From contig JAZLJP010000041.1 of NCBI GenBank assembly GCA_045617985.1, forward strand, positions 1,922 to 65,921: a DNA stretch of 64,000 bases. Reading direction: 5' to 3'. Positions within the stretch are counted from its first letter, which is position 1; every line of letters starts with the position of its first letter. The position numbers were made by a program, and so were the translations under genes. This document shows positions 10,659 through 62,283 of the stretch, one piece after another. The notes beneath the pieces were generated by a model that saw only the letters and a program-made list of their open reading frames with translations, ran no database searches and was not told the DNA's origin. The DNA is from Kiritimatiellia bacterium. GTDB taxonomy: Bacteria > Verrucomicrobiota > Kiritimatiellia > RFP12 > UBA1067.

Positions 10659-10741
10659 GAGGCTCGCGCGGCTTCGGAGCCGTCAGCCGAACGTACCTCA
10701 CGCGGAGGGCGTACGCTTGCCCCCGAAGCCGCACGAGCCTC
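10659..10741. repeat. Imperfect inverted repeat (19-bp arms, 18/19 match, 45-nt loop) at the left junction of the low-GC island
   Basis: GAGGCTCGCGCGGCTTCGG (10659-10677) pairs with CCGAAGCCGCACGAGCCTC (10723-10741). The right arm abuts the first base of the segment shared with paralog D. The stop codon of truncated paralog A lies in the loop. Confidence 0.6.
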
Positions 10742-11225
10742 GGTCACCGCATGATCGATCATTGCAGAATTTCCGAAAGATGTCAACATCGATTGGGAAC
10801 GAATAGGGGTCGCGCGGGGGAACATATCGGCAGTCGAGCAGACACGCCTTCTCATCCAGAAGCTTTCGCAGAACAATGCGAAAGGGATTGGATTCAGAAT
10901 GTTCTTGCGGCGTGGCACATTCGGTCCGATTGGGATTTAGATAGTCCTCATATCTGTACCCTTTCTTGCCTGCGGCCTCAACATGACGGTCTTCATCTTC
11001 TTCAACTGGGGCGACAATCCTCCCGTTCTCCGTTGCCTGGAACCATTTCTCGTGAGGGACGGGATACGGGCTGCCGTCAGGCAAGTCCCACCACTTCAAT
11101 TTCACAAATGCACCGGGAACAGGATGCCCTTCCTGATCAGTGACCAGGAAGTGAACTGATCCGCCAAACAATTCTCCAAGGGACAGATAGGACAAACAAA
11201 CGACAATCATCTCTTTCAGTTTCAT
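10698..11225 (-). pseudogene. Truncated member (A, 175 aa) of the island paralog family. It keeps only the N-terminal third and ends in unrelated GC-rich sequence.
   Basis: MKLKEMIVVCLSYLSLGELFGGSVHFLVTDQEGHPVPGAFV... aligns with paralog D up to ...FCNDRSCGDR, then diverges (GSCGFGGKRTPSA*). GAGGAG precedes ATG 11225. The conserved TTN..G.IATTNRV and HRYPPRPD regions are missing. Confidence 0.6.
10741..10893. repeat. 153-bp segment about 97% identical to 14808..14960 (paralog A versus paralog D)
   Basis: Direct comparison of the two stretches shows only about 4 substitutions. The encoded peptide NPFRIVLRKLLDEKACLLDCRYVPPRDPYSFPIDVDIFRKFCNDRSCGDR is identical in both. Confidence 0.85.
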
Positions 11226-11370
11226 ACAAACTCCTCTTTCAGACATGACGACGTAGAAGTCTACCTTCGTATTTTGCATTGCGACATTTCCGTTCAGCAG
11301 GGAAGGACGAGTCAGAAACAGTCCTCTATGCCCAAACGCCTCCATCCCCGAACCCGTGAATCATACCACT

Positions 11371-12558
11371 CTATTCTGGAAGAGAAAGCGTATGAGCCTC
11401 ATTACACAATCGATCAAGCTCCAACGCCTTGTCGCGATAGAGAGAATGGGATGAATCAAGTTCCTTTTGATAAGGAGCAGTTGCACGCACAACCTCCTCC
11501 TTGGTCGCTTGAGGATGCGACTTGCGAAACTCTTCGATCTTCATGTTCAATTCATACCGGCGGACATGCCATTTCGAAATCTCATCCTCCAATATTCGGC
11601 GCCTTTCCAAGTTAGCGGCTCTTGCCTTCAGATCCGGATGGCGAGGATAAATGCGATCCAGCAATAACGAACGCCAGGCTTCCTGCGTCAAATCCCGAGC
11701 ACATTCACTTCCGATTTTCTCAATCCGGTCATCATATTCGAATTCCCTTCGACCATAGGGATTCAAAATCGAACGTGGAATGGAAATATGGAAACGCGGA
11801 TCTGACGGTTTAGTCCGCACAACGCCACTCTCGTTATCGAACGGCAGCATCATGAACACCTGGGGGGTCCGTGTGCGGAGATATAGCGTGAAGGACGAAT
11901 TGGTGTAGACCTCCTGCGAGACTTCGACATGTTTCACGTACCCTTTGTCTGGAGCGACAAACACCCGATTGGTCGTGGCAATAATACCAGAACATTCATT
12001 GGTCGTCCAGAATGCCACAGTCCAACAATTCGACTCGGCGTGAAAAGATGGGCAAACATGGAAATCCCGATACCCATCACCCTTTGAATCGTACGCTTCC
12101 CTTGATTCGGCATACATATCGACAGTGATCGGTTCGCACTTCCCACCATCGCAATAATAGGGATTACTATAATTGCAAACAAGGCAGAAGGAACGAGCCG
12201 GCTCTTTCTTTCGCAGGACAATCCGATAGGGGTTATCCTGCGGAGCTCGACTGGGGATCAGCACCTTGTTTCTGCCAGGATTCAAATATCTTTCATACAC
12301 ATAACCATCCTTTTTCGCATCGAGAATCTCAACCCATCGCTTTAACGACATATTCGTATCGGCACGACCATCGCGAGCAGATTTCAAAGTTTCCCTTTTA
12401 GGAGGCAAGAGACTTCCTGAAAAGTTTTTTTCGTAGTAACCAATACTGATTTCACAATCTTCGACAGGAACACCAAATTGGTCCACGACCATCAAATTAA
12501 CCGTAGGGCGAGAGAGAAGAAGCCACGGCATCAACAACAGAAGGACACACGATTTCAT
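11371..12558 (-). CDS. Secreted island paralog B (395 aa), unrecognised family
   Basis: Signal peptide MKSCVLLLLMPWLLLS. The family motifs are all present: NPYRIVLRK, TTNECSGIIATTNRVFVAP..GY, FTLYLRTRTPQ, NPYGRREFEYDD and RIYPRHPD. The C-terminal charged heptad-like tail ends in HTLSLPE. GGGAGGTG precedes the ATG. Confidence 0.8.
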   Translation of the reverse strand: MKSCVLLLLMPWLLLSRPTVNLMVVDQFGVPVEDCEISIGYYEKNFSGSLLPPKRETLKSARDGRADTNMSLKRWVEILDAKKDGYVYERYLNPGRNKVLIPSRAPQDNPYRIVLRKKEPARSFCLVCNYSNPYYCDGGKCEPITVDMYAESREAYDSKGDGYRDFHVCPSFHAESNCWTVAFWTTNECSGIIATTNRVFVAPDKGYVKHVEVSQEVYTNSSFTLYLRTRTPQVFMMLPFDNESGVVRTKPSDPRFHISIPRSILNPYGRREFEYDDRIEKIGSECARDLTQEAWRSLLLDRIYPRHPDLKARAANLERRRILEDEISKWHVRRYELNMKIEEFRKSHPQATKEEVVRATAPYQKELDSSHSLYRDKALELDRLCNEAHTLSLPE

Positions 12559-12591: not shown

Positions 12592-13854
12592 TCATTTGCT
12601 TTCAAGGAAGAGGGTATGAACCTCCTTGTCCAAACGAACGCATTCCTGCCCTCTTGCGCTGGCCAGACCTTGAATGCGCTCGTCTTCCGTCCGCAGCGCC
12701 TTCGTCGCCTCCTCTATTTGCGCAGGCGAGCTTCCGGCCATTTTAGACTTGATTTGTTTTATCTGTTGCTTCAATTCCCGACTTTTATCCTCCAACTCCA
12801 TTAACTCTTTCAAAAGAATCTTTTTGGCTTTTCGATTCCTGATGCGCGCGGGCACGTCGGGCGGGCGAGGATAACGGTGCTCGAACAGAAAATCGTCCCA
12901 TGCATCAAAACGTATCGTATCCGCGACACTTCCACCCATCACTGCCTCGTCCAGGGAATCATCCTCCTCGAAAGTCCGCCCGCCTGTCGGATTGATCAAA
13001 ACGTTCTCAAAACCAAATTCGAAATACGGTGCTTCAGAATCATTACCTGCATATCCCTTTATGCCAAAATATTCTCCAGAGGCAAATGGAATCATGGCAT
13101 GGACACGGGGCGTTCGCGTGCGAAAATAGAGCGTGAAGCAGGGATGGGCGTAAAGTTCTGGAGACACCTTTACTTGTTGACTATACCCCTTTTCCGGAGC
13201 CATGAACACGCGATTGGTCGTCGCAATGATTCCGCAGCCGGAATTAGTCGTCATGAGCGTGAACGACCATCGTCGCGAACTGGAATCGAAATGTGGTTCA
13301 ACGGAAAAATCCGTATATCGCAGATGGTTCCGCTCGGGTTTAGCTTCGCTAACCCTACGGAAGAAGTCGATGTCTGCTCGCTTTCTTCCGTTTCTCTGGC
13401 TGAAACGATAATGGCAATCCTCAATATTCCTCCATCCAGCAGGGAACTTGACACCAATTGGGTTCAACATGCAAGTCTTTTCGTCCTCCAATTTTCGCAA
13501 TACGAATTTATGAGGATTCTCGAGCGTGTCCTTCACGGTGATGTAGCTGTGAATCGCGGGATTTTGGAACTCCTCAAATTTGTATCCGTCTTTCCATAGC
13601 TTTTGAAGAGAGCCATAACTACCCTCGCCGAGTTTGATTTCCACTCGGCCGGACTCATCTGACTGTACAAAGACATCATAACCATCACGTTCCTTGATTG
13701 CCGGCGAATTGCGTATCTCCAATCCAAACAACACCAAGTTGGCGCCGGCGACCGGCCGCCCCACGTGATCGACAACAAGGATGTGGGCACTCTCCGCTTC
13801 CCCACCCCAAACCGAGGCAGCGAGCGACATAAGAACAAAAAACATTTTCATCAT
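12592..13854 (-). CDS. Secreted island paralog C (420 aa)
   Basis: Signal peptide MMKMFFVLMSLAASVWG. It carries HILVVDHVGRPVAGANL (Ig-like/CarboxypepD_reg-like start), NPHKFVLRK, TTNSGCGIIATTNRVFMAP..GY, FTLYFRTRTPR, NPTGGRTFEEDD, HRYPRPPD and a coiled-coil-like tail. Confidence 0.8.
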   Translation of the reverse strand: MMKMFFVLMSLAASVWGGEAESAHILVVDHVGRPVAGANLVLFGLEIRNSPAIKERDGYDVFVQSDESGRVEIKLGEGSYGSLQKLWKDGYKFEEFQNPAIHSYITVKDTLENPHKFVLRKLEDEKTCMLNPIGVKFPAGWRNIEDCHYRFSQRNGRKRADIDFFRRVSEAKPERNHLRYTDFSVEPHFDSSSRRWSFTLMTTNSGCGIIATTNRVFMAPEKGYSQQVKVSPELYAHPCFTLYFRTRTPRVHAMIPFASGEYFGIKGYAGNDSEAPYFEFGFENVLINPTGGRTFEEDDSLDEAVMGGSVADTIRFDAWDDFLFEHRYPRPPDVPARIRNRKAKKILLKELMELEDKSRELKQQIKQIKSKMAGSSPAQIEEATKALRTEDERIQGLASARGQECVRLDKEVHTLFLESK

Positions 13855-13875
13855 CTGTTCCTTTCGTCGTTAAAA

Positions 13876-13927
13876 CTCAATGGGGACTGTCCCCACGCGA
13901 ACTCAATGTGGACTGTCCCCACGCGAA
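13876..13927. repeat. Two tandem 26-nt direct repeats in the D-C spacer, each containing the GGACTGTCCCCACGCGAA motif
   Basis: CTCAATGGGGACTGTCCCCACGCGAA (13876-13901) is followed by CTCAATGTGGACTGTCCCCACGCGAA (13902-13927), with one mismatch. GGGGAC-T-GTCCCC is itself an inverted repeat. Confidence 0.85.
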
Positions 13928-14062
13928 GCAAGACGGGGACGGCGATATTGTACCAAACGCCCGAAACTGATGGAAGACAAAATAAGGCTAAAGTTCACCC
14001 ATTTTTCAACCTCCCGCTCGACGAGCGACGCTCCACTCCACACGAATGTCCTCGTGAAATCG

Positions 14063-15283
14063 TCATCGCTCATCGTTTGGCTGGACAACATTGGCAGGTT
14101 TGGACTCCGGCAGCACAAGCGTCAATATCTCCTTGTCCAACTCTTCAAGCTTGCATTGAAGTGGTCGCATTTGATCGCGGATCTTCCAGACTTTTCGTCG
14201 TGCAGGTTCTAATATCTTATCCAGCTCTTCTGTCGACAATCCTTTGTTTTTATCCCGAAGCGGTTTGATTTCCAGTCGATAGCATTCGTCAGCTCTGTCC
14301 TGTAACAGTTTCAACTCCTTTTCAACCGCCGACCTCCGCTTGCGGTTCTCGACACGAGCCCGAATGTCCGGTCGAGGAGGATAGCGGTGGTCGAACAGCA
14401 ACGATTCCAGTGCATTGATACAAATGGACTCGGCTATGTCCATGGCCTTGAGTTCGTCGTCGTTTTCAAGGCTACGTCCTCCCGTCGGATTGACGAGGGC
14501 CATGTCATACCTAAATCGGAAAAACGCCTTGGGCGAATCATCAAAATCGAAGTCATGAGCCGGTCTAAAAGCAATCATACAATATATCTGCGGGTCTCGC
14601 GTTCGACAATAGAGGGTGAACGCCTCGTTGGTATAAAACTCCCGAGAAATGTCCACCTGTTGTGCATATCCCGTCTCAGGAGCGCAATAGACGCGGTTTG
14701 TCGTAGCGATGAGGCCACAATTGGCATTCGTCGTGACAATTGTCAACGTCCAGTTCTTCGTCGCCTGATCGAAATGCGGTTTGACGGTAAAGTCCGTATA
14801 ACTGTATCGGTCACCGCATGATCGATCATTGCAGAATTTCCGAAAGATGTCAACATCGATTGGGAACGAATAGGGGTCGCGCGGAGGGACATATCGACAG
14901 TCAAGCAGACACGCCTTCTCATCCAGAAGCTTTCGCAGAACAATGCGAAAGGGATTGGCTTCCGTGCATTTTTCTTCGGTGCAATCACTCAGGCGATTTG
15001 GATTCAAGAATTTCTCGTATCGATACCCCTGTCTCACGGCGGCTTTGACCTCATAAGTGCGCTGTTCCTCCGATGTCACTACGAGTCGTCCCATTGCGTC
15101 TGTTTTCTGCCACTGCTTTCGCTCGACGAAGTAGTCGTTTTCAACATCCCCCCAGCCGTACTGCACGAACGCTTCCGGAACCGATCGTCCTTCCTGATCT
15201 GTGACCAGAAAGTGAACCGATCCACACAACGCGTATCTTGACAACAAACACCCAAAGCAAGCAACTATCATTGCGATTTTCAT
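14063..15283 (-). CDS. Secreted island paralog D (406 aa), coupled to the orphan tip fragment
   Basis: Signal peptide MKIAMIVACFGCLLSRYALCG, followed by all the family motifs (TTNANCGLIATTNRVYCAP..GY, HRYPPRPD). It ends ...LPESKPANVVQPNDER. Its ATG 15283 lies 2 nt after the stop of the 15286..15852 ORF, with GGAGGA just upstream. Confidence 0.8.
   Translation of the reverse strand: MKIAMIVACFGCLLSRYALCGSVHFLVTDQEGRSVPEAFVQYGWGDVENDYFVERKQWQKTDAMGRLVVTSEEQRTYEVKAAVRQGYRYEKFLNPNRLSDCTEEKCTEANPFRIVLRKLLDEKACLLDCRYVPPRDPYSFPIDVDIFRKFCNDRSCGDRYSYTDFTVKPHFDQATKNWTLTIVTTNANCGLIATTNRVYCAPETGYAQQVDISREFYTNEAFTLYCRTRDPQIYCMIAFRPAHDFDFDDSPKAFFRFRYDMALVNPTGGRSLENDDELKAMDIAESICINALESLLFDHRYPPRPDIRARVENRKRRSAVEKELKLLQDRADECYRLEIKPLRDKNKGLSTEELDKILEPARRKVWKIRDQMRPLQCKLEELDKEILTLVLPESKPANVVQPNDER
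14808..14960. repeat. Partner copy of the 153-bp near-identical segment (see 10741..10893)
   Basis: Same comparison as for 10741..10893. Confidence 0.85.
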
Positions 15284-15285
15284 GG

Positions 15286-15852
15286 TTAGTCCTCCACTGA
15301 ATTTACATTCTGGTTTTGATCTGGCATGAAAGGTCTCTCGATTTCATCTTTGACGATGGACCAAATCTCAAACACATCTGTTATGTTCGAACGGAACTGC
15401 CGGCTGTGCCCATAGTGGTCATTGCCATACCCATAATCCTTTAAAGACACCTTACGGTTCACGACACCATTCATGTCAAGCTGACCAAAAGCGAGAGAAC
15501 GCGTTGGCGTTACGAACGAAAACACACACCAGCGAGCCCATTCATCGCCAACAGGGTCGATACACAATTTCCCCAATGTTTCAGTATGTCGATAGAAACC
15601 TACTTGGGTTTGTCTGGTCTCAGAACCCTCGTCGACTATCTCAGACGATCCATAGTTGAAACTCGTGTCATGTTTAAACACGCCTTCCAGATTGTCTGGC
15701 TTTGAACAGTTGTTCATGACCCAGATGTTGAGCGCGTAGTCCTTACGGTTAAAGAAATTGACAGTACGGACATTAGCCAAAACATTGGTCAGATAGGGCT
15801 TCCCATTGCCAGACAATGCGAAATTTCCTTGTAAATCGGGAATGTTACTCAT
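15286..15852 (-). CDS. Orphan fragment (188 aa) homologous only to the C-terminal ~217 aa of the giant protein
   Basis: MSNIPDLQGNFALSGNGKPYLTNVLANVRTVNFFNRKDYALNIWVMNNCSKPDNL...WARWCVFSFVTPTRSLAFGQLDM...HYGHSRQFRSNI aligns with the giant protein APDIMGNFPRKDGPARPYLENVLTGLRNTANFYNRQDYALNVWLGNNATKPDNL...CAKWCAFSFVVQSRSLAIGQLNM...HYDHSHEFRSSI. The start is taken at the first in-frame ATG at the homology boundary. The track ORF extends to 16116 without homology. Confidence 0.6.
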   Translation of the reverse strand: MSNIPDLQGNFALSGNGKPYLTNVLANVRTVNFFNRKDYALNIWVMNNCSKPDNLEGVFKHDTSFNYGSSEIVDEGSETRQTQVGFYRHTETLGKLCIDPVGDEWARWCVFSFVTPTRSLAFGQLDMNGVVNRKVSLKDYGYGNDHYGHSRQFRSNITDVFEIWSIVKDEIERPFMPDQNQNVNSVED

Positions 15853-16248
15853 CTTGATCTTATTCCATGAACGGCCCCCAAATCCTGCAATTTTTTTCAA
15901 GGGTTCTTCAAACGACAGTTGAATCCGTGGAGGACAGTCCCCACGGCAACGTCGAGGCGATGAACGCCGAAATGTTTTCCAGATGTCTGCCATGGCAATC
16001 CGCCACCTCCTTTGAACCAACCGCGCCGACCACACAACCATTTTACCAAAGACGCCCCCGCCGGTAAAGCCAAAACTCCGACTAGGAAACAATCGGCCAG
16101 CAAGCGGGGGACGCATCCGCTGCCACGGGCTTCACGCAGGAGGAGTGGAGACGAGGGGAAGAGATTGAAGAGTCGCTTCGAATCGCACGGGGGCCGACCT
16201 CGTGGGCCACTTGAGGATTCGCACGGGGACAGACCCCAGCATCAGGGA

Positions 16249-16289
16249 CGAAGATTTCGGCTCGCAACCATTCCGCACCGAAATCTTCG
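16249..16289. repeat. Perfect 12-bp stem / 17-nt loop hairpin in the 533-nt spacer between paralog E and the orphan fragment
   Basis: CGAAGATTTCGG (16249-16260) pairs with CCGAAATCTTCG (16278-16289). It is flanked by GGGGACAGACCCC (16225-16237) and GGGACTGTCCCCC (16292-16304). Confidence 0.7.
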
Positions 16290-16385
16290 CAGGGACTGTC
16301 CCCCGTGGATTATGCAGAACACGCCGAAACTCGCTTCGCGGGACGCGGAAAACCCGCTCGAAGGAATGTCCACGCGAAATCGTCA

Positions 16386-43182: not shown

Positions 43183-45582
43183 ATGACACACGATTCCGAC
43201 ATCGAACTCCTCGCTCCGGCAGGATCCTTTGAAACCGCGCTCGCCGCGTTCGCGGCCGGCGCCAACGCCGTCTACCTCGGCCTCGCGAGTTTCTCCGCCC
43301 GCGCCGAAGCCGTGAACTTCACGCCGGACGAGCTGCGCGACCTCATCGCCTACGCCCGCGCCGCCACCCCGCGCCGCGCCGTGTACGTGACGTTCAACAC
43401 GGTTCTCGACGACGCACAGCTTCCCGCCGCGATCGAAACGCTCGCCCTCCTCGACGAGCTACGGCCCAACGCGCTCATCGTTCAGGATCTCGGTGTCGCG
43501 CGCCTCGTGAAGCGCCACTTCCCCCATCTCGCCCTTCACGCCTCCACCCAGCTCGTCGCCCACAACCTCGAAGGCGTGCTCGCCCTGAAGGAGCTCGGCT
43601 TCACCCGCGTCGTCCTCGCACGCGAACTGCCGCTTGAGGATATCCGCTCGATCGCCCTCCGCAGCGGCGTAGAAATCGAAGTGTTCGTGCACGGCGCCCT
43701 TTGCTATTCCCTTTCCGGGCTCTGCCTTTTCTCCGCGATGGAAAAGGACCGCAGCGGCAACCGCGGCAAATGCGCCTACTGCTGCCGCCTCGCCTACACG
43801 GACGCCCTCGGCGCGCGCGCGCTCCCCTTTTCGATGCGCGACTTGCGGCTCGACGATTCGCTCGCCGCCCTCCGCGACGCCGGCGTCGCCTCGCTCAAGA
43901 TCGAGGGCCGCATGAAGTCCGCCCTCTACGTTTCCACCGTCACCTCGCACTACCGCGAACTTCTCGACGGCCGCCCCTCCACGACGACGCGCGCCGATCT
44001 CGAAACGGTGTTCTCGCGCCGCACCACCCAGCTCTACTTCGCCGGCTACCCGAAGAGCGCCACGCACCAATCGCCCACGAACGTCATCGACCCCTCTTCG
44101 CTCGGCCACCTCGGCACCCCCATCGGCACCGTGAAGCGCCTCACGAAAGACCGCGAAGGACGCACCTGGCTGCGCCTTCATACTTCGCGCGCGCTCGAGC
44201 GCCACGACGGTCTCCAGTTCCTCGCCGAAGGCGGCAAGCCCTTCGGTTTCGGCATCACCGATCTCCGCGTGGCTCTCTCGCGCACCACCGTCTTTTCCGT
44301 GCGCGCCGGAAGCGATGTCGAAATCCTCGTTCCTTCGGTGCGCCCGGGCGACAGGGCCGCCGTCGATCCGCTCACGCACATCGTTCCCGGCGCGACGGTG
44401 TTCTGCTCGGCCTCGAACGAAGTGAAGCGCCGCTTCCCCGTGCCCTCTTTCCGTCCAAGCGACTACGAGGCCGGCACCCCGATCGATCTCACCGTCACGC
44501 TCGCACCAAGCGGCATCTCCCTCGTCGCGCGCGTCCCCGACCTCGCTCTGGAAGCGACGCATTCCGTTCCGCTTGCGCTCACGCCCTCGCAACATCCCGA
44601 ACGTACCGAAGAGGCCGTGCGCCGCGCCTTCGCGCGCCTCGGCGGCACGAACTGGTCGCTCGGCGCGTTCACGCTTGTCGATCCGGGCCACCTCTTTGCG
44701 CCCGCCTCCATGCTCAACGACGCCCGCCGCCTCCTCGTCGAAAAGCTCGACGCCGCCCGCCTCGCCGCACGCGCCGCCACCGTGAGGGACGCGCTTCTGG
44801 ACATTCGTAGCGCCGCTCCCGCCCCCTCCACCGCCGCCCGGGAGGACGCGCTTCTGCGCGTTCGCGACCTCCCGCCGCCGCCCGCGCGCGTTCTCAAGCT
44901 GCGGCTCGACCAGGCCCTCCCCGAGGACGCAACCTCCTACGACGAACTCGTCATCGCGCTCGGCCATCGCTCCGGAAAGGACGCCGAGGCCGCTCTTCTC
45001 GCACGCGCCTCCGCCCTTCGCGCCCAAGCCGAAGCGGCGGGCGACGCCGCCCCCGCCCTTCGCCTCGCGCTCCCCGTCTTCACCCGCGAACGTGAATTCA
45101 ACGCGCTCCGTACAACCGTGAAACACCTCGTAAAAGCCGGCCTCACCGCCTGGGAAGCGGCCGACCTCGCGACCCTCCGCCTCCTCCGCACACTCGGCCT
45201 CGACGACCTCACGGCGGATTGGACGCTCTACGGCTTCAACTCCGCCGCCCGCGCCACCCTCGCCGAACTCGGCGTGAAACGCGTCGTCCTTTCGCCCGAG
45301 AATTCGTTCGAAAATCTCACGGCCGCCGCCGCCGAACACACGCCGCTCCCCGCGCCCGAATTCCTCGACCGTCAATCGACCCCGCTCTTCCTTTCGCTCA
45401 CGCGCCCCGCAACAGACGCTCCCTCACACCTCACCGGCCTCAAGGGCGATGAGTTCACGAGCTTCGCGATCGACGACCTCTGGGTGACAACCCGCCTCGC
45501 CCCCCGCACGTTCCCGGTTCCCGAGACCGCACAGACCATTCGCACCGATCTCAGCTGGAACGCTGCGCCGATACCCTCTTAA
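43183..45582 (+). CDS. U32-family peptidase with a long C-terminal extension
   Basis: IELLAPAGSFETALAAFAAGANAVYLG, then EVFVHGALCYSLSGLCLFS...RSGNRGKCAYCCR, which is the U32 signature region. 799 aa. Confidence 0.8.
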   Translation: MTHDSDIELLAPAGSFETALAAFAAGANAVYLGLASFSARAEAVNFTPDELRDLIAYARAATPRRAVYVTFNTVLDDAQLPAAIETLALLDELRPNALIVQDLGVARLVKRHFPHLALHASTQLVAHNLEGVLALKELGFTRVVLARELPLEDIRSIALRSGVEIEVFVHGALCYSLSGLCLFSAMEKDRSGNRGKCAYCCRLAYTDALGARALPFSMRDLRLDDSLAALRDAGVASLKIEGRMKSALYVSTVTSHYRELLDGRPSTTTRADLETVFSRRTTQLYFAGYPKSATHQSPTNVIDPSSLGHLGTPIGTVKRLTKDREGRTWLRLHTSRALERHDGLQFLAEGGKPFGFGITDLRVALSRTTVFSVRAGSDVEILVPSVRPGDRAAVDPLTHIVPGATVFCSASNEVKRRFPVPSFRPSDYEAGTPIDLTVTLAPSGISLVARVPDLALEATHSVPLALTPSQHPERTEEAVRRAFARLGGTNWSLGAFTLVDPGHLFAPASMLNDARRLLVEKLDAARLAARAATVRDALLDIRSAAPAPSTAAREDALLRVRDLPPPPARVLKLRLDQALPEDATSYDELVIALGHRSGKDAEAALLARASALRAQAEAAGDAAPALRLALPVFTREREFNALRTTVKHLVKAGLTAWEAADLATLRLLRTLGLDDLTADWTLYGFNSAARATLAELGVKRVVLSPENSFENLTAAAAEHTPLPAPEFLDRQSTPLFLSLTRPATDAPSHLTGLKGDEFTSFAIDDLWVTTRLAPRTFPVPETAQTIRTDLSWNAAPIPS

Positions 45583-48500
45583 CGCAGGAAAATCGCCGTT
45601 CCGGCGCTATCGACGCGCAAACGCTGGTTGCGCACCGTAATCGCAAGCCCCGCGCGTTCCTCGCCGTTCACGACGACCTTCCAGTCCCTGAACGAGCCTG
45701 CGGCATTCTGTACGACAAGCGGCAAGGTGAAGTGCGAGCCGAGATCTTCAGGCGCGTTCACCACCTCCAAGACGCCCCCCGCCTGCGTCGCAAGAAGCGT
45801 CACCGTGCCCGCACTCGTCCAATCCACCTTCACGCCCGCCACCTTCAGCTGCGGCGTGGAGACGGCCAAGGTCGCCCCCTCCGCCACCTCCACCATGCCA
45901 AGCATGCCCGCTTCATCGCTCGCGGGCGAGGCGAGCGGCACGAGCGGATACGCGCTGCCCCCGTTGAAGGCCGTCGTCACCGTGTGGGGCGTTGCGGCGT
46001 TCGCGCGCGCATCCACCGTCATCCAATTCACGCCGTCCGCACTCGCTTCGAGTTTCCACGTGTTCGGATTGCGCTGCCAGAAATTGGCGGCATGGATCGT
46101 CGTTGTAAGCAAATAGCCCGTCACGGGCGCGGCCGCATCCGCCAGGCGCATGGTGACGACAAGCCACGTATCCGCCTTGTCCGGCGCATTGAGCTTATGA
46201 TCCGTCACGCACCATTTCGTTTGCGGATTCCCGTCAAATAGCTTATCCACCGTTTCGCCATTGCCATGAGCATACCCTTTCGCCTGGGCAAAGGTGCCAG
46301 CCCTGAGCGCCGTCGCCGCCGTGCCGTCGCTCATCATCTGCAAGCCCTGGTTCACCCGGTTTCCGGCGGCATCGAAGAGGGAGAGTTCGGAGGTTTCCAT
46401 GATTTCATTCGACTCCGTCTTCTGGAACGACATGCGGAACCACTTCCAGCCGTTGGAGGGGAACGGCGCCACCGAGAGGCGGCCGCCCGCCACGCGCAAA
46501 TCGCCCGCGAAGTTCGGCGTGCCCACGAGCGCGGCCTCGCCCGCGCCGCTCTTGACGATCGTGCCCGAGCCGATGACGGACGCATTCGCGAAACCGTCCG
46601 TGAGGCGCAGCTCGCCGCCGTTCGTGAGGGCAAGCGTCTCCACGTTCACACCGGCCGCCTTGAGCGGCATGCCGTCCATCGTGAGCGACGAGCCCGGCGC
46701 GCCCCACACGTTCACCGGGGTGTTGGCGGAGGGAATGTCAAACGGCCCCGCCCAGGTCCAGCGCGCCGCCGGCGCCGTGAAATTGAGGCGTTTGTCGAGG
46801 GTCACCCAGGTTTCGCCGTCGTTGCTGCCCTGCAGGAGCCAGTCCGCCGGGTCGCGCGACTCTTTCGTCCCAGCCCCCATGTTAGACGTCGCCCAGTTGT
46901 AGGAGGTCACGCGCTGGGGCTCGGCGTAGTCGATCTGCAGGCGAATGAGGCCCTTGTTCGCCGCCGCCTTCGTGGCCGCGCAGCGGAAGTCGAGATACTT
47001 CGTCGAGAGCGAACCGTCGAGCGCATACTTCGGCTGTTCGGCCGTCGGGGAATTGCTGTCGGCATTGTTCGCCTGCGTCGAGGAGAAGCCGCTGCGCTTC
47101 CCGGTTACGTCTTCATCGCCGTCCATCAGCTTCAATTCGGCGAACTCCATGCTGTTGCAGGCGGAACCGCACGCACGCAGCACCACGAACCGATAGTGGC
47201 GATAGACGGGGGCACGGCACACCGCCGCGCCCGCGAGGACGAGATCGCCGCCAAACGACCCGTTCACCGTGAGCGTGCCCGCGCCTTCCTTGCGAAGCGC
47301 CACGTTCGTGACCGGCGCAAAACCAAGCTCGGCATCTCCGTCGCCGCGGCCCACCACGACCGTCGCCTTCGTTGCCGAGGTGTTGACGAGCGCGCCATTG
47401 TCGTAGGCGGTGTTGAAGACTACGGTATGGCCGTTAAGGTCGAGCGTGGCCGGATACTCGGCACGCACGTCGCCCGTGTTCACCCCCGTCGGGAACGCCA
47501 CATCCGAAGTGAACGTGGTCGTACCGGCCGTGAAGCGCGTATCGCCCGCGTATTCAAGCGTTGTCGACGTTCCAAGACCGAAGTTGAGAGCACCTGCACC
47601 CGTTCGCGTGAAACCGCCCTCGCCCATAAAGCGCGCCGTCACCGTATTGCCCGACATGAAGGTATTCGCATTCGCCGGGAAATCGAAGACGATGTCGTGC
47701 CCCGCCGGGGCGATGAAATCCATCCTGCCGTTCTGGTTAAGCGAGAGAAAGTTCTTACCGGATCCCGTGGCCGAGACGCGGCCGCCCGCGAACACCATCT
47801 GCACGACAGGATCGTCGTTCTTGGAGAACTGGGCCACCTTGAGCGAAGTCCCTTCGCCGAGCGTGATTGCGGCACGCACGGTTTCACGATCGGCGCCGTC
47901 AACCGGCCCGTAGGGCGTGAAAGTGAAGGTATTGCCCGTCACCGTCGCGCCATCCTGCAAGACGAGCGCCCCCGTCGTCATCCGGCGCGCCTCCCCCACG
48001 TCGCCCGCAAGAGTGATGTTGCCGAGGTTCATCGTGGCGTTGGAGACGACGAGCGTACCCGCATCGCCGCTCTTGCCCACATAGGTTGTGCCCGTCACCT
48101 TCACCGTTCCGCTCGTCACGGCAAAAGTCGCCGCCGTTTCGCCGGCGCCAGCAACGTCGAGAGAGGCGAAGCTCGCCGTCGCGCCCGGCTCCACGGAAAG
48201 GGCCGCGCTCGCGGGATCGAGCGACACCGCTCGCCCGTCCGTGAAGTGGGCCGTACCCTTGCCCGCCACAGAGAGCGGCGCATTCCCTAGCCCCGTATTG
48301 GCGAGGTTGAACGTGGTTCCCGCAAGCGTCGTCACCAGGAACGGATGCGCGGGCGAAATCGCGCCCGGCGTCACCACGCCGGTCAGCGTCGCGGTGCCCG
48401 CAGCCGGCCCCATCAACTGCGTATCGTAATAGAACGCGTTCAGGCCAACGAGGTCGAGATCCTGCGCCATGTCGAAGTTCACCTGGAAGACCGCCTTCTC

Positions 48501-50258
48501 GGCAGGTGCCTCTTCCCAGGTGATTTTCTCGATATCGGCCGGCGAACACACGAGAAAATGCGCACCGGCGGCCACACGAAGCGTTTGATCGGTGGCAAGG
48601 GGGTTTTTAAGGTAGAGCGTGCCTTCGTCGACAAAGACCGTGGTCGCGCCAACGATCTCACCGAGAACGACCAGCGTGCCCGCGCCCGTCTTGTGGAATT
48701 CGGAAGGTCCGGTCTGCCCCTCGGCCGGCGTCACCTGAATGGGACTTTCAACCTGCGCCGTCACTCCATCAGGAACACCCACCGAACCGCGCCCTTCTAC
48801 GGCCACGCGAGCAAGGTTCTTAATCGACCCCGAGGAAAGGTTGAGGGTTCCGCCCGTCAATTTGAGCACGCTCAGATTCGCCGATGCCGCATCGTAGGGC
48901 GCAACGCCAGGTGCCGTCACCACGCCGCCCGCCAGGATGTCGAGCGTTCCCGTTCCGCCCTTTTCGCCGAGATTCAAAATAGCGGTCGTCGTGAGCGAGC
49001 CCGCCACCGTGCCCGTGCCCGTACCGCTGTTCGGCCCGAGAATGACCCGTGAGCACGTCACCGTGCCGCCTTGATCGATTTGCAGTGTACCCATACCGAA
49101 ATAGTCGCCGAAACGCAGCCAGCTGGTCGAATCGACCGTGCCGCCGGCAGCGACGACAAGCCGCCCAGAGCCGCCCGGCCGCGGCCCGAACGCGAGCGAG
49201 GTCGTGGCAACGATAGTCCCACCTTCTCCCACCGTCAACCCGCCCACGTTCCCCGCGCCATAGCCAAAGGTTTGGTAATTAAGAACATCCGAAAAGGTCA
49301 GCTTGCCGTTCTGCACCGTGAGGAAACCGTTGTCGGCCTGCACGCCGTTGACGGTTGTCGTAACCCCGTCCAGAACGAGCGGCGTCGCACCGGCCACATC
49401 AAGCGTTTGATTGCCAGCGAAGGTCTGCCCCTTCCACGCGCCATCTTTCCAATACGGCGCAAGCGTGGTCACATCGCGCTGGAAGACGGCGTTCTCCTCT
49501 TCGAAGTTCGCGAGCACCTGCGCCGCCGTGAGGCAGCCATCGTGCACGCGCACCTTGGCGATGTCGCCCACGAATCCGTTCGTGTAGGTTTTCGACGAAC
49601 GGCTCCACACGCCGCCCACCGTGCAGAAGGCGGTATCGCTCGAGAGGTTCAACGTCTGCCACACCGACGAGACGCGCCGCCCGTCCACGTAGAGGCAGGT
49701 GTTCGTGCCGTCGACCGTATTGACGAGGTAATGCCATTCGCCGGGCGTCGGGTACGTCACCCCCGCCGGTGCATTGGCTCCCGTCCGACCATACCACGTG
49801 AGGTTGCCGTTACCATAATATTCTACGGCGTTCTTGACATCCGTCGAATAGCGCATTTCGCACACCGTGCCGTTGTTGTTGCTGAGGCCCTCGCGCGCCG
49901 TCGTCGCGAACATCGTATGCGTGCCTGTGGGCGTAGAGGAACACACCCAGAGTTCGATGGAGTAGTCGTTTGCGCCGAGAATGCCGTTGGGCGTCGCCAC
50001 CGGGCACCGGAGCGCCGTCCCCGCGCCGTTGAAGCGCACCACGGGAATGCCGCCCCGCGTCTGGCGCGTGGGCGGTGTGGACGCATTGACGGCCTCGAAG
50101 TCGCCGAGCGTGTTCCCGCCGTTCCAGGAAAGGACCCCTGCCCCGTCGGCGAGCGCGAGCGTAGAGGCATCGAGTTCGACAATCATATTTCCCGCCCGTT
50201 CCAGTCCCCACGCGAACAAAACAGGCATAAGACAAACCGACAGAACAAGTTTCTTCAT
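45579..50258 (-). CDS. Giant secreted protein (1,559 aa): LamG-like N-terminal domain, autotransporter-associated beta-strand (PATR-like) repeats and two discoidin-like modules
   Basis: Signal peptide MKKLVLSVCLMPVLFAWG, with GGGAGG upstream. Repeated K(T/S/E)GAGTL.. motifs are followed by GTLYLKN-type strands. The discoidin-like assignment (YRHYRFVVL..MEFAELKL, WKWFRMSF..TSELSLF) is tentative. The protein ends in GTAIFLR. Confidence 0.75.
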   Translation of the reverse strand: MKKLVLSVCLMPVLFAWGLERAGNMIVELDASTLALADGAGVLSWNGGNTLGDFEAVNASTPPTRQTRGGIPVVRFNGAGTALRCPVATPNGILGANDYSIELWVCSSTPTGTHTMFATTAREGLSNNNGTVCEMRYSTDVKNAVEYYGNGNLTWYGRTGANAPAGVTYPTPGEWHYLVNTVDGTNTCLYVDGRRVSSVWQTLNLSSDTAFCTVGGVWSRSSKTYTNGFVGDIAKVRVHDGCLTAAQVLANFEEENAVFQRDVTTLAPYWKDGAWKGQTFAGNQTLDVAGATPLVLDGVTTTVNGVQADNGFLTVQNGKLTFSDVLNYQTFGYGAGNVGGLTVGEGGTIVATTSLAFGPRPGGSGRLVVAAGGTVDSTSWLRFGDYFGMGTLQIDQGGTVTCSRVILGPNSGTGTGTVAGSLTTTAILNLGEKGGTGTLDILAGGVVTAPGVAPYDAASANLSVLKLTGGTLNLSSGSIKNLARVAVEGRGSVGVPDGVTAQVESPIQVTPAEGQTGPSEFHKTGAGTLVVLGEIVGATTVFVDEGTLYLKNPLATDQTLRVAAGAHFLVCSPADIEKITWEEAPAEKAVFQVNFDMAQDLDLVGLNAFYYDTQLMGPAAGTATLTGVVTPGAISPAHPFLVTTLAGTTFNLANTGLGNAPLSVAGKGTAHFTDGRAVSLDPASAALSVEPGATASFASLDVAGAGETAATFAVTSGTVKVTGTTYVGKSGDAGTLVVSNATMNLGNITLAGDVGEARRMTTGALVLQDGATVTGNTFTFTPYGPVDGADRETVRAAITLGEGTSLKVAQFSKNDDPVVQMVFAGGRVSATGSGKNFLSLNQNGRMDFIAPAGHDIVFDFPANANTFMSGNTVTARFMGEGGFTRTGAGALNFGLGTSTTLEYAGDTRFTAGTTTFTSDVAFPTGVNTGDVRAEYPATLDLNGHTVVFNTAYDNGALVNTSATKATVVVGRGDGDAELGFAPVTNVALRKEGAGTLTVNGSFGGDLVLAGAAVCRAPVYRHYRFVVLRACGSACNSMEFAELKLMDGDEDVTGKRSGFSSTQANNADSNSPTAEQPKYALDGSLSTKYLDFRCAATKAAANKGLIRLQIDYAEPQRVTSYNWATSNMGAGTKESRDPADWLLQGSNDGETWVTLDKRLNFTAPAARWTWAGPFDIPSANTPVNVWGAPGSSLTMDGMPLKAAGVNVETLALTNGGELRLTDGFANASVIGSGTIVKSGAGEAALVGTPNFAGDLRVAGGRLSVAPFPSNGWKWFRMSFQKTESNEIMETSELSLFDAAGNRVNQGLQMMSDGTAATALRAGTFAQAKGYAHGNGETVDKLFDGNPQTKWCVTDHKLNAPDKADTWLVVTMRLADAAAPVTGYLLTTTIHAANFWQRNPNTWKLEASADGVNWMTVDARANAATPHTVTTAFNGGSAYPLVPLASPASDEAGMLGMVEVAEGATLAVSTPQLKVAGVKVDWTSAGTVTLLATQAGGVLEVVNAPEDLGSHFTLPLVVQNAAGSFRDWKVVVNGEERAGLAITVRNQRLRVDSAGTAIFLR

Positions 50259-56761: not shown

Positions 56762-59700
56762 TTAGCGGAGGAGAATGAGCGTTCCCGGGAGAATGATACG
56801 AACGGTTGCCGAGGCGCTCTGGACCGAGCCGTTCTTGTTGTAGGCGATGACGGTGTAGGTGCCCATGTCGCCCTTCGTCGCCTTATCGACCTGATAGGCC
56901 GCCTGTACGGCGCCGGGAATCGCAACGCCGTTGCGGAACCACTGGAAGCGCGTTGCGCCACCGGCCGCCACGGCGAGCGCGAACGGTTCGCCGAAGTGGC
57001 CGACCGTATCGACCGGGTCGTTGAAAAGCGACGGACCGTTCACGCCCGCAAGCGGCTGGGCCGTTTCGCGCACGTAGACCGAAAGGCGCCGGACCGTGAA
57101 GTCCTCGGCATTGTAGGCATGCGTCCAGTCGCGCCCGATCGACGAGCTCGGGCTCGGGTAATTGCCAATGCCCACGCACAGCTTGTCACTTGAATTCGAA
57201 CCGAAGCTGTTGATGGCGAAGAGCGTTTCGCCCGCGCCGTAGTTGTGCACCTGCATCGAACCGTAGCCGGTCCCCGTCGACCCGCCCGTGTCGTCCCAAT
57301 CGAAGAGCGCGTCGTCGCCGCCGAGATTGAGGGTCTTTCCGGACGAATAGTTCGAGGACCAGAATTCGATGTTGCCCGTCTGGATGCCGTCTCCCGTCAC
57401 CTGTACGCCCGCGTTCGACGACGCCCGCACGTTCAGATTCGCGATCTTCTGCTGGAACATCGCGCCACGATCGGCAGTAGGCAGCGGCAGATTCCGCAGC
57501 GACGGCGTAAAGGCATCCATCGACACCCATACCCACTTCGAGACGCCGCCCGAAACGAGTTCAAGCGAATACGCCACCCGGTCGAACGGTACGCCGCGGA
57601 AGAACTCTTCATCGACGAGATACGGCGTATCCGACCACACCCCCGCACGCGTGGTGGGAAGATCGATCTTGTAGGCGAGCCGATAATTGGCCGCTTCGGG
57701 GACATCGGCAAGGTAGGCCGGCTTCGCCACGTCGGCCGCAGCGGGCACGGCCAGATTCACCGTGCCGGGCGTCGAGCCGCCGGCGGCGCCCTCTACGCCC
57801 GAATAGGAAATCACGTATGTGCGGCCGGCCGCGAGGCCCGTCACCGTCAAGATCACCCACTGGTTGTCGTAGGGATGCACCCCCGTCACCTGCGCTCCGC
57901 CGTCGATCGTAAACTCGGCATGCGCGAGCGCCGCCGTCACCAGTGCACGATTGAAGCGCACCGCCACCTGGTCGCGATCAAGCGCGGCCACGGCGCGCGA
58001 TGCCGCCGGCGCCGGACGCGCCGCCAAATCACACGTCGTGCGCGGCAACACGAAACAGCAGAAGCGCGAAATCTTGTACTTCGTCGCATTCGCCGTATGC
58101 GTGTAGTCGATATCGGCCGTCGAGGTGATGTAGAGGTTCTTGCCCACACCCAACCCGGGTTCATTGCCCTTGTTGAAACGGTTGAACGCGAAGAGTATCT
58201 CGCCCTTCCCCCAGTTGTGGAGCTGCATGGAGCCGTGGCCGTTCGTGCCCGTACTGAAGCCGGAATCGTTCCAGTCGAAGGACGACCCCGATCCGCCCCA
58301 GGGATTCGAAGAGTTGCCGGCCGCATAGTTCGACGCCCAGAACTCCACGCACCCCGTCGAAGAACCGCGAACCGGCGTGATGTTCGGATCGTTCGAGTAG
58401 ACGTCCATGTTCCCCACGCCCGTCTGATACGCATAGCCGCCGATCGGAATGCCCAGTTCATGCGCCTTCGGCGAGAACGGATCGATCACGGCAAGCACGT
58501 AGCGCGGCCCCGAATCGCGGGCCGAATCGGAATACTGCACTTCCATGAAGTAGGCGACGCGCGCAATGGACCCCTTCGGATAGCGGCCCGTGTTGTCGAC
58601 CTCGTAGAGGTTTTCGCGCAACCAGGCCGCGTTGTTGTCGGCCACATACGTCTTGTCGGGCACCTTCCCGATGGACCACATGAGCTCGAAACCGTCCAAC
58701 ACGCCCGAACCCGCAAGGTTCTCGATATGCATCTTGAGACTCGCTTCACGGTCCCTGACGAGCGCCACCACGCGCACGTTCTGCAATGTGCCGCCCGTGC
58801 CCGTGAAGGTCCAGTCGAGATCGCTGTTCGACGGTTTGGGATTCGTGCCGATGCCAAAGCCCGGCTGGTTGCCGTTGTTGAACCGGCTGAGCGACCAGAT
58901 GACGTGCGGATGGTCCGCACTGACGTTGTGCACCTGCATCGACCCGTGGCCCACGGCCGTCGTGTAGTCCTTGTCGTCCCAGTCGTAGAGCGACGCGGAG
59001 CCGTTCCAGTTGCTCACCGTGCCCTGGCCATAGTTCGAGGCCCAGAACTCGATCGCACCCGTCGAAAGGCCCGTGCCGTTATCAACGCCCGGATCGTTCG
59101 AAATGACGTCGAGATTCTTGACCGGCAACTTGAAGTAGTAGCCGCCGAACGGTACGCCCACGCACTTCGCGTTCGGCGTAAAGGCGTCCATCGCCGTCCA
59201 CACATAGCGCGGCGCCGCATCGCCCGCGGCCTGCAACTGGATGAAGTACGCCACGCGATCGAAGGAGCCGTGCTTCACCGTGTCGCGGAGATCGACCGTG
59301 TAGAAGTTCTGCGCCGCCCAATTGGCGTCGCTTAGGTAGACCTTCGCCGGCATGGTATTAGCCGCCGCCACGACGCGGTACCCTTCCACGGCTTCGGATC
59401 CGATCACGCCCGCGATTTCGTCCTTGAACTGTTCGGCACGCTGCTCCTGCGTGGCGTCAGGCGCACGCTCCGCTTTCGGGCGCACGAACACGAACAGGCG
59501 GCGGCGCCAGTAATTGCCGCCGTTCGCACCGAACGTCCAGTCCTTCGCATCCGTATGGCCAGAAATGCTGCTGTTGCCGAAGCCGAGGCCGAGCGACTGG
59601 TTGTCCGTTCCCATGTTCGTGATCGACCAGAGCGTGAGGCCGCCGAGCCAATAGTTCACCTGCATCGACCCGTGGCCGGCCACATCCGGATTCTGCGTGA

Positions 59701-62119: not shown

Positions 62120-62283
62120 ATTCGAACTCCTTGCTCTTGCTGAAGATAAACACACTTTCCAAATGCTGGTACTATTTTACCACGTATCGCCTCCGATTGT
62201 CAATAAGGTTGCGGCCGAAACTCAACCAAGGCCACTCGCCAAAGCCCCCGCTAAAAGAGGCTTTTAAGCAAGCGGACCAGGAG

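Follow-up and report, generated by a model that had tools for sequence, protein, structure and literature searches.

A 5'-truncated hydrolase fragment with its own partner gene in a candidate polymorphic effector locus of a Kiritimatiellia bacterium

The closest described arrangements to the one discussed here are the orphan modules cdiA-CT/cdiI and rhs-CT/rhsI of contact-dependent inhibition (CDI) and Rhs loci, promoter-less 3' gene pieces that lie with a partner gene of their own downstream of a full toxin pair (Poole et al. 2011, reviewed in PMC9086364). In CDI loci the orphans typically start at the conserved VENN motif that precedes the toxin, and the toxin domain that they encode is whole and active (PMC9086364). 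With regard to the type of enzyme, the 'cinquedea' of Haloferax is reported to be a secreted hydrolase of DUF900 type with bactericidal phospholipase activity (bioRxiv 10.64898/2026.06.10.730825). We discuss a stretch of 64,000 nucleotides from a Kiritimatiellia bacterium (assembly GCA_045617985.1, contig JAZLJP010000041.1, positions 1,922 to 65,921 of the forward strand), the whole of which we call the window, and within it an open reading frame (ORF), the orphan, that corresponds only to the C-terminal part of a very large protein encoded nearby, the giant. The orphan is followed by a gene for a partner protein, D, and the giant by a gene for a related partner, E. Coordinates are window positions, and the orphan, the giant and all partner genes are on the minus strand.

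We interpret the locus as one for a polymorphic effector and its partners, in which the orphan is what remains, at the 3' end, of a second hydrolase allele formerly joined with D in a complete module, and the partners are protective, and we put the probability of this at about 0.7. The observations that carry it are the homology of orphan and giant, the truncation point, a full-length counterpart elsewhere, the synteny of hydrolase and partner genes, and a series of fragment lengths in relatives. The features on which the argument turns are:

Giant gene: 17630..25279, minus strand, 2549 aa if read from a TTG; the probable start is the ATG at M56, which gives 2494 aa.
Partner E: 16386..17630, minus strand, 414 aa; the second ATG (MKFKLL) may be the true start; match to the partner hidden Markov model (HMM) with E 5e-152.
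Orphan: 15286..15921, minus strand, 5'-truncated hydrolase fragment of 211 codons plus stop, frame intact.
Partner D: 14063..15283, minus strand, 406 aa, syntenic partner of the orphan-type hydrolase, with its Shine-Dalgarno (SD) sequence GGAGGA in the last codons of the orphan.

They lie in an island of low GC content at about 10.7-25.3 kb (GC 0.50, against 0.62 in the genome flanks), in the order giant, E, a GC-rich gap, orphan, D, a 208-nt gap, and three further partner genes C, B and A'.

The original prediction, made from the sequence of the window, was that the orphan is a stand-alone homologue of the last ~217 aa of the giant, and the similarity is significant. The orphan ORF (15286-16116, 276 aa, the frame being open upstream to ATG 16116) gives a single strong BLASTP alignment, confined to the C-terminal part of the giant, between its aa 84-261 and giant aa 2323-2547 (35% identity, E 2e-33; giant residues are numbered here from the TTG, 55 above the earlier numbering from M56), and it matches the HMM for the hydrolase tail with E 3e-83. 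The shared motif blocks listed earlier are all present (PDxxGNF, PYL, NFxNRxDYALNxW, KPDNL, WCxFSFV..RSLAxGQLxM and HSxxFRS), and nothing upstream of the match, the HSQG elbow included, is found in the orphan. The close spacing to D is also as described, with the orphan stop TAA at 15288-15286, the D start ATG at 15283, 2 nt on, and GGAGGA within the last orphan codons. However the homology does not stop at ATG 15852, and runs 23 codons further upstream, to nt 15921. The candidate starts are ATG 15993, ATG 15852 and TTG 15816, the existing gene call being of 176 aa from TTG 15816.

A full-length counterpart is present in L058, a metagenome contig and one of three related contigs that we use for comparison, the others being L057 and the Logan contig L006. 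With D as query we found orthologues P0157 (77%) and P0158 (71%). On L058 a hydrolase gene of at least 663 aa, with a pre-domain and a head containing AHSQGN, is followed 2 nt on by a D orthologue (77%). Over 200 aa the tail of this hydrolase shares 78% identity with the orphan (E 2e-115). L058 1351-3228 and window 15921-14047 are collinear (78.7% over 1886 nt), and the DNA similarity ends abruptly upstream of 15921, so that the breakpoint is placed to the base. It had been proposed that a newer toxin end and partner displaced an older one, and that full-length genes with an orphan-type tail might be found in relatives. L058 has such a gene, with tail and D orthologue both of the expected type, and with its collinear DNA it supports the view that the orphan and D are the remnant of a once-complete hydrolase-partner module downstream of giant and E. 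Two scans of metagenome contigs found nothing, one with the orphan by itself as query and the other with the two orphans aligned.

The states found in front of partner genes in the window and the three related contigs are:

L058, D-type partner: preceded by a complete hydrolase gene.
Window, D: preceded by the 211-codon fragment.
L057, D type: no hydrolase before it; palindrome CACGGGGACAGTCCCC ~45 nt ahead of the start.
L006, C type (62% to window C): preceded by a 169-aa tail-only ORF, cut 37 codons further in than that of the window.
Window, C: no fragment before it, there being no match to the tail HMM in the D-C gap.
L057, next partner (450 aa): preceded by a tail fragment of ~90 positions.
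L058, next partner (contig ends): preceded by a tail remnant of ~25 aa.

L057 has a further tail remnant of ~26 positions after the 450-aa partner, with no partner match downstream of the remnant. The truncation points fall at tail-HMM positions 2, 38, 107, 137 and 169, and as they differ among relatives the length of 217 aa must be incidental. We read the range from a full gene through fragments of variable length to nothing as a probable erosion series.

Beyond the clade of the orphan, tail-only pieces are rare, beside ~50 complete domains in 48 genome loci. An Opitutia metagenome-assembled genome (MAG) (JACRHS010000022.1, locus L030, 8400-11500) has a hydrolase gene, a partner-like gene, an IS110-like transposase fragment, a 173-aa tail-only ORF and a partner gene. 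In Geothrix fermentans DSM 14018 (NZ_AUAU01000037.1, locus L018, 1-460), a cultured isolate, an insertion sequence has split a family gene: the C-terminus of an ISL3-type transposase ends at about nt 280 and the hydrolase frame resumes at 'NVVMGEAL' directly after the nucleophile elbow. We considered the Geothrix tail-only ORF as a further orphan and rejected it, the ISL3 insertion after the elbow being a different kind of truncation.

The position of the breakpoint can be related to a predicted structure. The AlphaFold (AF2) model of the giant C-terminal domain made from a 46-sequence alignment has a predicted local distance difference test score (pLDDT) of 75 and a predicted template modelling score (pTM) of 0.79, and replaces an earlier model from a 6-sequence alignment (pLDDT 39). 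The domain and the residues proposed for its catalytic triad, with conservation as in the 46-sequence alignment, are:

C-terminal hydrolase domain of the giant: 17633..19012, minus strand, aa 2090-2549.
Ser2240: nt 18562-18560, minus strand, in the invariant H-S-x-G-N.
Asp2369: nt 18175-18173, minus strand, in NxxDYAL, with N..D invariant.
His2523: nt 17713-17711, minus strand, in the near-invariant H-S-x-x-F-R-S.

The proposal that these three form the triad comes from conservation and topology rather than measured geometry. The head and tail HMMs match at giant aa 2095-2553. Foldseek against the PDB returns alpha/beta hydrolases only (esterases, cutinases, lipases, Tle3 and PlaB), and Pfam DUF900 (PF05990) is matched by five of six relatives (best E 5.9e-7), with weaker matches to DUF676, Abhydrolase_6 and Tle3, the Tle3 model being weakly matched by two of the six family members. 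Querying the PDB by sequence, either with the domain itself or with a profile of it, gave only chance or elbow-only matches. The giant thus appears to end in a DUF900-like alpha/beta hydrolase of the lipase/esterase type.

In the model the nucleophile elbow THSQGN places Ser2240 after strand 144-150 and before helix 153-163, and the order is strand-Ser-helix (144-163), strand 6 (172-177), strand 7 and then Asp (271-280), strand 7 itself being 271-276 with D2369 just after it; strand 8 (417-420) leads into the His-bearing region (417-434) and the last helix. The orphan starts at about domain position 206, in a low-confidence loop between strands 6 and 7. It keeps the Asp (DYALN, nt 15741-15739) and the His (HSRQFRS, nt 15408-15406), and lacks the Ser nucleophile (HSQGN), strands 1-6 and all that lies upstream of the match. 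Without the Ser and six of the eight core strands the orphan should therefore be catalytically inactive on its own.

On this model the orphan tail is the back half of a single alpha/beta-hydrolase domain with no separable tip. The idea of a separate tip module in the last ~217 aa is not supported, as Asp and His are in the tail with Ser upstream and the modelled breakpoint falls between strands 6 and 7; nor do the varying truncation points agree with it, and the divergence between giant and L058-type proteins is spread over pre-domain, head and tail with no sharp boundary. It had been allowed that the tail might prove to be an invariant structural part of the hydrolase with no link to partner specificity. 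The first part is borne out, in that the tail is a structural part of the hydrolase, but it is not invariant and it travels with the partner.

Several points weigh against our reading. Inhibition of the hydrolase by a partner is something that we infer; the partners have no Pfam family; the domain of the giant itself matches no Pfam family even at E up to 10; Foldseek gives weak matches only (best E 6e-3, TM no higher than 0.23); and no delivery system of the type VI secretion (T6SS), two-partner secretion (TPS)/CDI or Rhs kinds is found in the giant or in the 28 window ORFs scanned against Pfam. The orphan itself has an intact frame of 211 codons with all family-invariant tail residues kept, and it may be expressed, there being a promoter-like site and an in-frame SD and ATG upstream. 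The site is a sigma-70-like -35/-10 at 16068-16040, the -10 region of which is also found upstream of the L006 orphan and of window C, and the SD is AAGGAGG, 12 nt before ATG 15993. Finally, the ratio of nonsynonymous to synonymous substitution rates (dN/dS) between the orphan and the full-length L058 tail is 0.16 (95% confidence interval 0.10-0.27; dS 0.94), indistinguishable from the 0.19 for D against its orthologue, where neutral drift of the fragment since the split would predict ~0.5-0.6. Such a value fits a recent truncation and continued selection on the fragment equally well.

These last points, together with the translational coupling of the fragment to D and the second intact tail-only ORF in L006, could be taken to mean that the fragment is a functional stand-alone protein kept by selection, for instance a regulator or decoy that binds D, or a scaffold. 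We think this unlikely. Fragment lengths in relatives vary widely (211, 169, ~90, ~26 and ~25 codons, and none), the upstream ATG is out of frame in L006 and no start codon is conserved, and a protein that lacks most of the core strands is unlikely to fold alone; the low dN/dS would be expected if the truncation were recent relative to dS = 0.94. We therefore favour a truncation that is recent relative to the divergence, because the fragments vary in length, have no conserved start codon and lack most of the fold. We also considered ATG 15993 as the start of a small conserved peptide and ruled it out, as a 2-nt indel shifts the L006 copy out of frame; conservation around ATG 15993 is at the DNA and not the peptide level.

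There is no detectable DNA similarity between the orphan and the C-terminal domain of the giant, the longest exact match being 9 nt with no BLASTN match at E < 0.03. With a much closer full-length relative elsewhere, in L058, this rules out a local duplication of the tail of the giant. The two hydrolase alleles are anciently diverged, and would have been joined by insertion or transfer. The same comparison bears on the suggestion that the fragment is a silent cassette, from which the C-terminus of the giant and its partner are exchanged by recombination in programmed or frequent allele switching, of the kind suggested for orphan cdiA-CT or rhs-CT modules. The arrangement does resemble CDI/Rhs orphan arrays (PMC9086364), an intact 3' coding end and its partner have been kept, and the conserved spacers could supply one crossover site. 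However the absence of DNA similarity between fragment and giant domain leaves no substrate for RecA-type recombination, and makes switching within the genome by homologous recombination unlikely. The break falls within the catalytic domain, at a place where there is no conserved motif, and a hybrid of 38%-identical head and tail may not fold, and we consider the silent cassette very improbable.

The remaining partner genes of the island are:

Partner C: 12592..13854, minus strand, 420 aa; L006 orthologue 62% identical.
Partner B: 11371..12558, minus strand, 395 aa.
A': 10698..11345, minus strand, truncated partner paralogue, N-terminal ~170 aa, at the edge of the low-GC island.

The window partner paralogues are 28-36% identical to one another, D and E being 33% identical end to end (E 4e-54), and the partners have N-termini that look like signal peptides when the sequence is read by eye, and a long helical C-terminal part. 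A' shows a mosaic relation to D-type alleles, with 156 nt (10740-10895) that match D 14807-14962 at 97% identity and 422 nt that match the L057 D orthologue at 89%, which suggests recombination among partner alleles. In L006 (1545-1943) the C-type partner is split over two frames (671-1750 and 1587-1943), by a frameshift that makes it a pseudogene or by an assembly error.

The pairing of hydrolase and partner is not confined to this locus. In the indexed database there were five relatives of the C-terminal 500 aa of the giant, all from Kiritimatiellae-type MAGs or metagenomes. In an exhaustive profile search the domain was matched by 3033 clusters at 50% identity, 1130 of them with E <= 1e-30, and the best 150 of the 3033 are proteins of 289-4008 aa that have it at the C-terminus or close to it. 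The hydrolase-partner pair is kept in more than 40 loci of Verrucomicrobiota/Kiritimatiellota, Desulfobacterota, Acidobacteriota, Planctomycetota and others; the partner gene in most cases overlaps the hydrolase stop or directly adjoins it, and 2-3 partner paralogues in tandem are common. One locus, from Verrucomicrobia bacterium UBA1200 (L010, 1-6917), has hydrolase, partner, an 815-aa hydrolase and partner in tandem with overlapping stops and starts, the downstream hydrolase copy having the pre-domain and lacking the giant N-terminal region.

Two loci of MAG RGIG3692 show how the pair can vary. The 5' contig end is 100% identical between them and the second partner 97-99%, the hydrolase domain is 77-91% identical, and the last ~200 nt of the hydrolase with the first partner are 46-70% identical, apart from one 100-nt window at 84% (all at the DNA level). 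This is a divergent hydrolase-partner cassette between conserved flanks (97-100% identical), and agrees with the expected joint inheritance of tail and partner. A further hint from these loci is that the fastest-evolving part is the last ~60 aa of the hydrolase rather than 217. We did not use the correlation of tail and partner identities as evidence of specificity, since any two linked genes would show the same.

A partner gene tightly coupled to, and directly downstream of, a lipase-like gene in many phyla, and encoding an exported protein of ~400 aa with a long helical C-terminal part, is also what one might expect if the partners were dedicated helpers of the hydrolase (foldases, chaperones or export adaptors, as is Lif, encoded beside the family I lipases) and the array a duplication of helper genes. 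However there are several highly diverged paralogues (28-36%) beside a single hydrolase, partners are retained after truncation or loss of the hydrolase, partner alleles are mosaic, and the hydrolase-partner cassette is divergent where the DNA on either side of it is conserved. These properties are typical of conflict (immunity) genes and not of helpers, and we find the helper proposal unlikely. The diverged arrays, the retention of partners after loss of the enzyme, the mosaic partner alleles and the atypical GC content together give the locus the signature of an effector/immunity conflict, and a toxin/immunity function would fit it. E is then most likely the cognate inhibitor or immunity protein of the giant hydrolase.

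The gap between E and the orphan, and that between D and C, contain the following:

Post-partner spacer: 16312..16385, minus strand, conserved, its first ~37 nt in common with the sequence after D.
GC-rich element: 15922..16311, minus strand, 390 bp, with 20-nt inverted repeats at its ends that contain palindrome GGGGACAGTCCC.
D-C spacer: 13855..14062, minus strand, with a conserved start, tttggtacaat and two tandem 26-nt units each with the palindrome; no hydrolase fragment.
Palindrome GGGGACAGTCCCC sites: 13882-13894, 13908-13920, 15930-15942, 16225-16237 and 16291-16303.

The gap before the orphan had been described as 533 nt of GC-rich, non-coding and structured DNA. It is GC-rich (0.60, against 0.50 for the island and near the 0.62 of the flanks), but the stretch without hydrolase homology is 464 nt (15922-16385). 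As for structure, this is found locally, in a hairpin at 16249-16289 and the 20-nt terminal inverted repeats, but not for the gap as a whole, which has no Rfam match and a fold z of -1.37 that is not significant. The block 16317-16367 of the post-partner spacer is 88-93% identical to the L057 and L058 spacers, above the identity of the coding regions. L057 (1335-1516) and L058 (3251-3429) have 40-nt inverted repeats ~100 nt apart in their post-partner spacers, a potential long hairpin, of which the window keeps only the right arm (16317-16367).

The downstream end of the 390-bp element is the exact truncation breakpoint (15921/15922). Its terminal inverted repeats, AATCCGTGGAGGACAGTCCC and GGGACTGTCCCCCGTGGATT, are 85% complementary. 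The five sites for GGGGACAGTCCCC (at most 2 mismatches) are all in the two spacers between cassettes; counting both strands there are 11 matches, against 1.35 expected, ten of them from the five spacer sites and the eleventh at 18257, inside the giant. In L006 and L057 the palindrome is again found where a spacer meets a fragment or a partner gene, in one case on the 3' side of a fragment. The hairpin within the element is 90% conserved downstream of the L006 partner, and L006 has partial homologues of the element both upstream of its orphan and downstream of its partner. With regard to features of a miniature inverted-repeat transposable element, the terminal inverted repeats are present and a target-site duplication is not visible. 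Related copies of the element are seen only inside these arrays, with no matches elsewhere in the window.

The spacer may be a small mobile element, a site of recombination, or a promoter or operator that selection has kept, with deletions always ending a little past it. As the fixed junction is always at the palindrome, on either side of the fragment, one could also suppose that the GC-rich palindromic spacers are attC-like sites of cassette capture or shuffling, served by a recombinase encoded elsewhere, and that arrays of hydrolase 3' end plus partner are assembled in this way in bacteria of the Planctomycetes-Verrucomicrobia-Chlamydiae group; we regard this as a speculative and rather improbable suggestion. 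The junctions bear too on the chance that two related loci were wrongly joined when a metagenome was assembled, and that the whole arrangement is a chimeric artefact. The contig is probably metagenome-derived, as MAGs are the nearest relatives, and the join sits at a repeated element, but comparable spacer/fragment or spacer/partner junctions are present in three other assemblies (L006, L057 and L058), and the window genes are all on one 103-kb contig with coherent flanks, so that an artefact is extremely unlikely.

The giant has a signal-like N-terminus, OCRE-type repeats, TSP3_bac repeats, a conserved pre-domain and the C-terminal alpha/beta-hydrolase domain, and its stop overlaps the start of E, which is translationally coupled to it, as TAATG. 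In a Pfam scan its only matches were to OCRE (E 8e-44) and TSP3_bac (E 4e-22), with none in the last ~450 aa and no features of CdiA (TPS/FHA repeats) or Rhs (YD repeats); the partners and the orphan gave no significant match. There are nine OCRE-type (Tyr/Asp-rich) repeats, which with the TSP3_bac repeats lie within the N-terminal two thirds. The region before the hydrolase, FWVNxDxD ... RDLEDFxRL ... NLFxAV ... FLxEGxxxGxG, is common to family members and has no Pfam model.

The T6SS components VgrG, Hcp and PAAR are not among the 28 scanned window ORFs, and a Pfam scan of the flanking ORFs showed no recombinase, transposase or integrase within ~10 kb on either side of the array. The flanking ORFs are pectate-lyase-like, AAA ATPase, BPL_N-like, transporters and TatC. 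Two further very large exported-looking proteins, unrelated to the orphan, are encoded at 56762-62155 and 45579-50258, one of 1797 aa with GDSL lipase and Big_5 and the other of 1559 aa with Laminin_G_3 and F5/8 type C.

The sequence of events that we propose, the direction and mechanism of which we infer, begins with a second, anciently diverged hydrolase allele that would have been paired with D as a complete module. The 5' part of this allele would then have been lost at a junction that is the end of the palindrome-bounded 390-bp element, leaving a remnant with neither nucleophile nor most of the fold, and hence with no hydrolase activity. D, C and B would have been kept for protection, or inhibition, against non-self hydrolase variants, and the fragment would persist as a progressively eroded hitch-hiker.

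On this interpretation the fragment would be a by-product, and its value is that it marks the locus as of the conflict type, with a polymorphic effector and partner. It also exposes what seems to be a large unannotated family, in which large proteins of very different kinds end in a DUF900-like hydrolase that is always paired with an exported partner of ~400 aa. Should the pair prove to be a toxin with its immunity protein, it would serve as a weapon against other bacteria in phyla for which no such delivery system has been described. For the study of specificity the array supplies a natural set of cognate and non-cognate pairs (giant domain with E, L058-type domain with D, L006 type with C), and the sharp junctions bounded by palindromes give an accessible point from which to learn how arrays of this kind arise, the spacer being the most interesting loose end.

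The locus can be compared with four described systems. Like cinquedea, five of the six relatives match DUF900, but cinquedea is a single-gene unit without a partner gene. The T6SS lipases Tle1-5 with their periplasmic Tli immunity proteins (Tle3/Tli3, PDB 8BOZ) have in common with this locus an alpha/beta hydrolase with a GxSxG-type elbow, an exported partner encoded directly downstream and tandem partner paralogues. However the similarity is at the level of fold only (TM about 0.2), there are no T6SS genes in the ORFs scanned, the hydrolase here is the C-terminus of a 2500-aa protein with Sec-type export, and the partner is unrelated by sequence. The rAID-1 clusters of Bacteroidales (bioRxiv 10.1101/471110) likewise have orphan immunity-like arrays, skewed GC content and repetitive intergenic sequences; here, in contrast, no tyrosine or other recombinase lies within ~10 kb on either side and the array is directly behind a resident effector gene.

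The CDI and Rhs orphans differ in that the cut in our locus is inside the catalytic domain, removes the nucleophile and varies in position, in that the giant has no TPS/CdiA or Rhs/YD features, and in that recombination with the resident gene would have no homology to act on. They are alike in having a full toxin-like gene and partner followed by a 3' piece that lacks the N-terminal delivery region and has a partner of its own, in that the pieces are read as ancestral pairs displaced by newer ones with the orphan partners probably kept for protection, and in that a full-length gene with the same C-terminus and the same partner exists elsewhere, here in L058. From this comparison the orphan and D are best seen as an orphan with its partner in the sense of the CDI/Rhs orphan modules, cut inside the catalytic domain and belonging to a so far unannotated effector/partner family.

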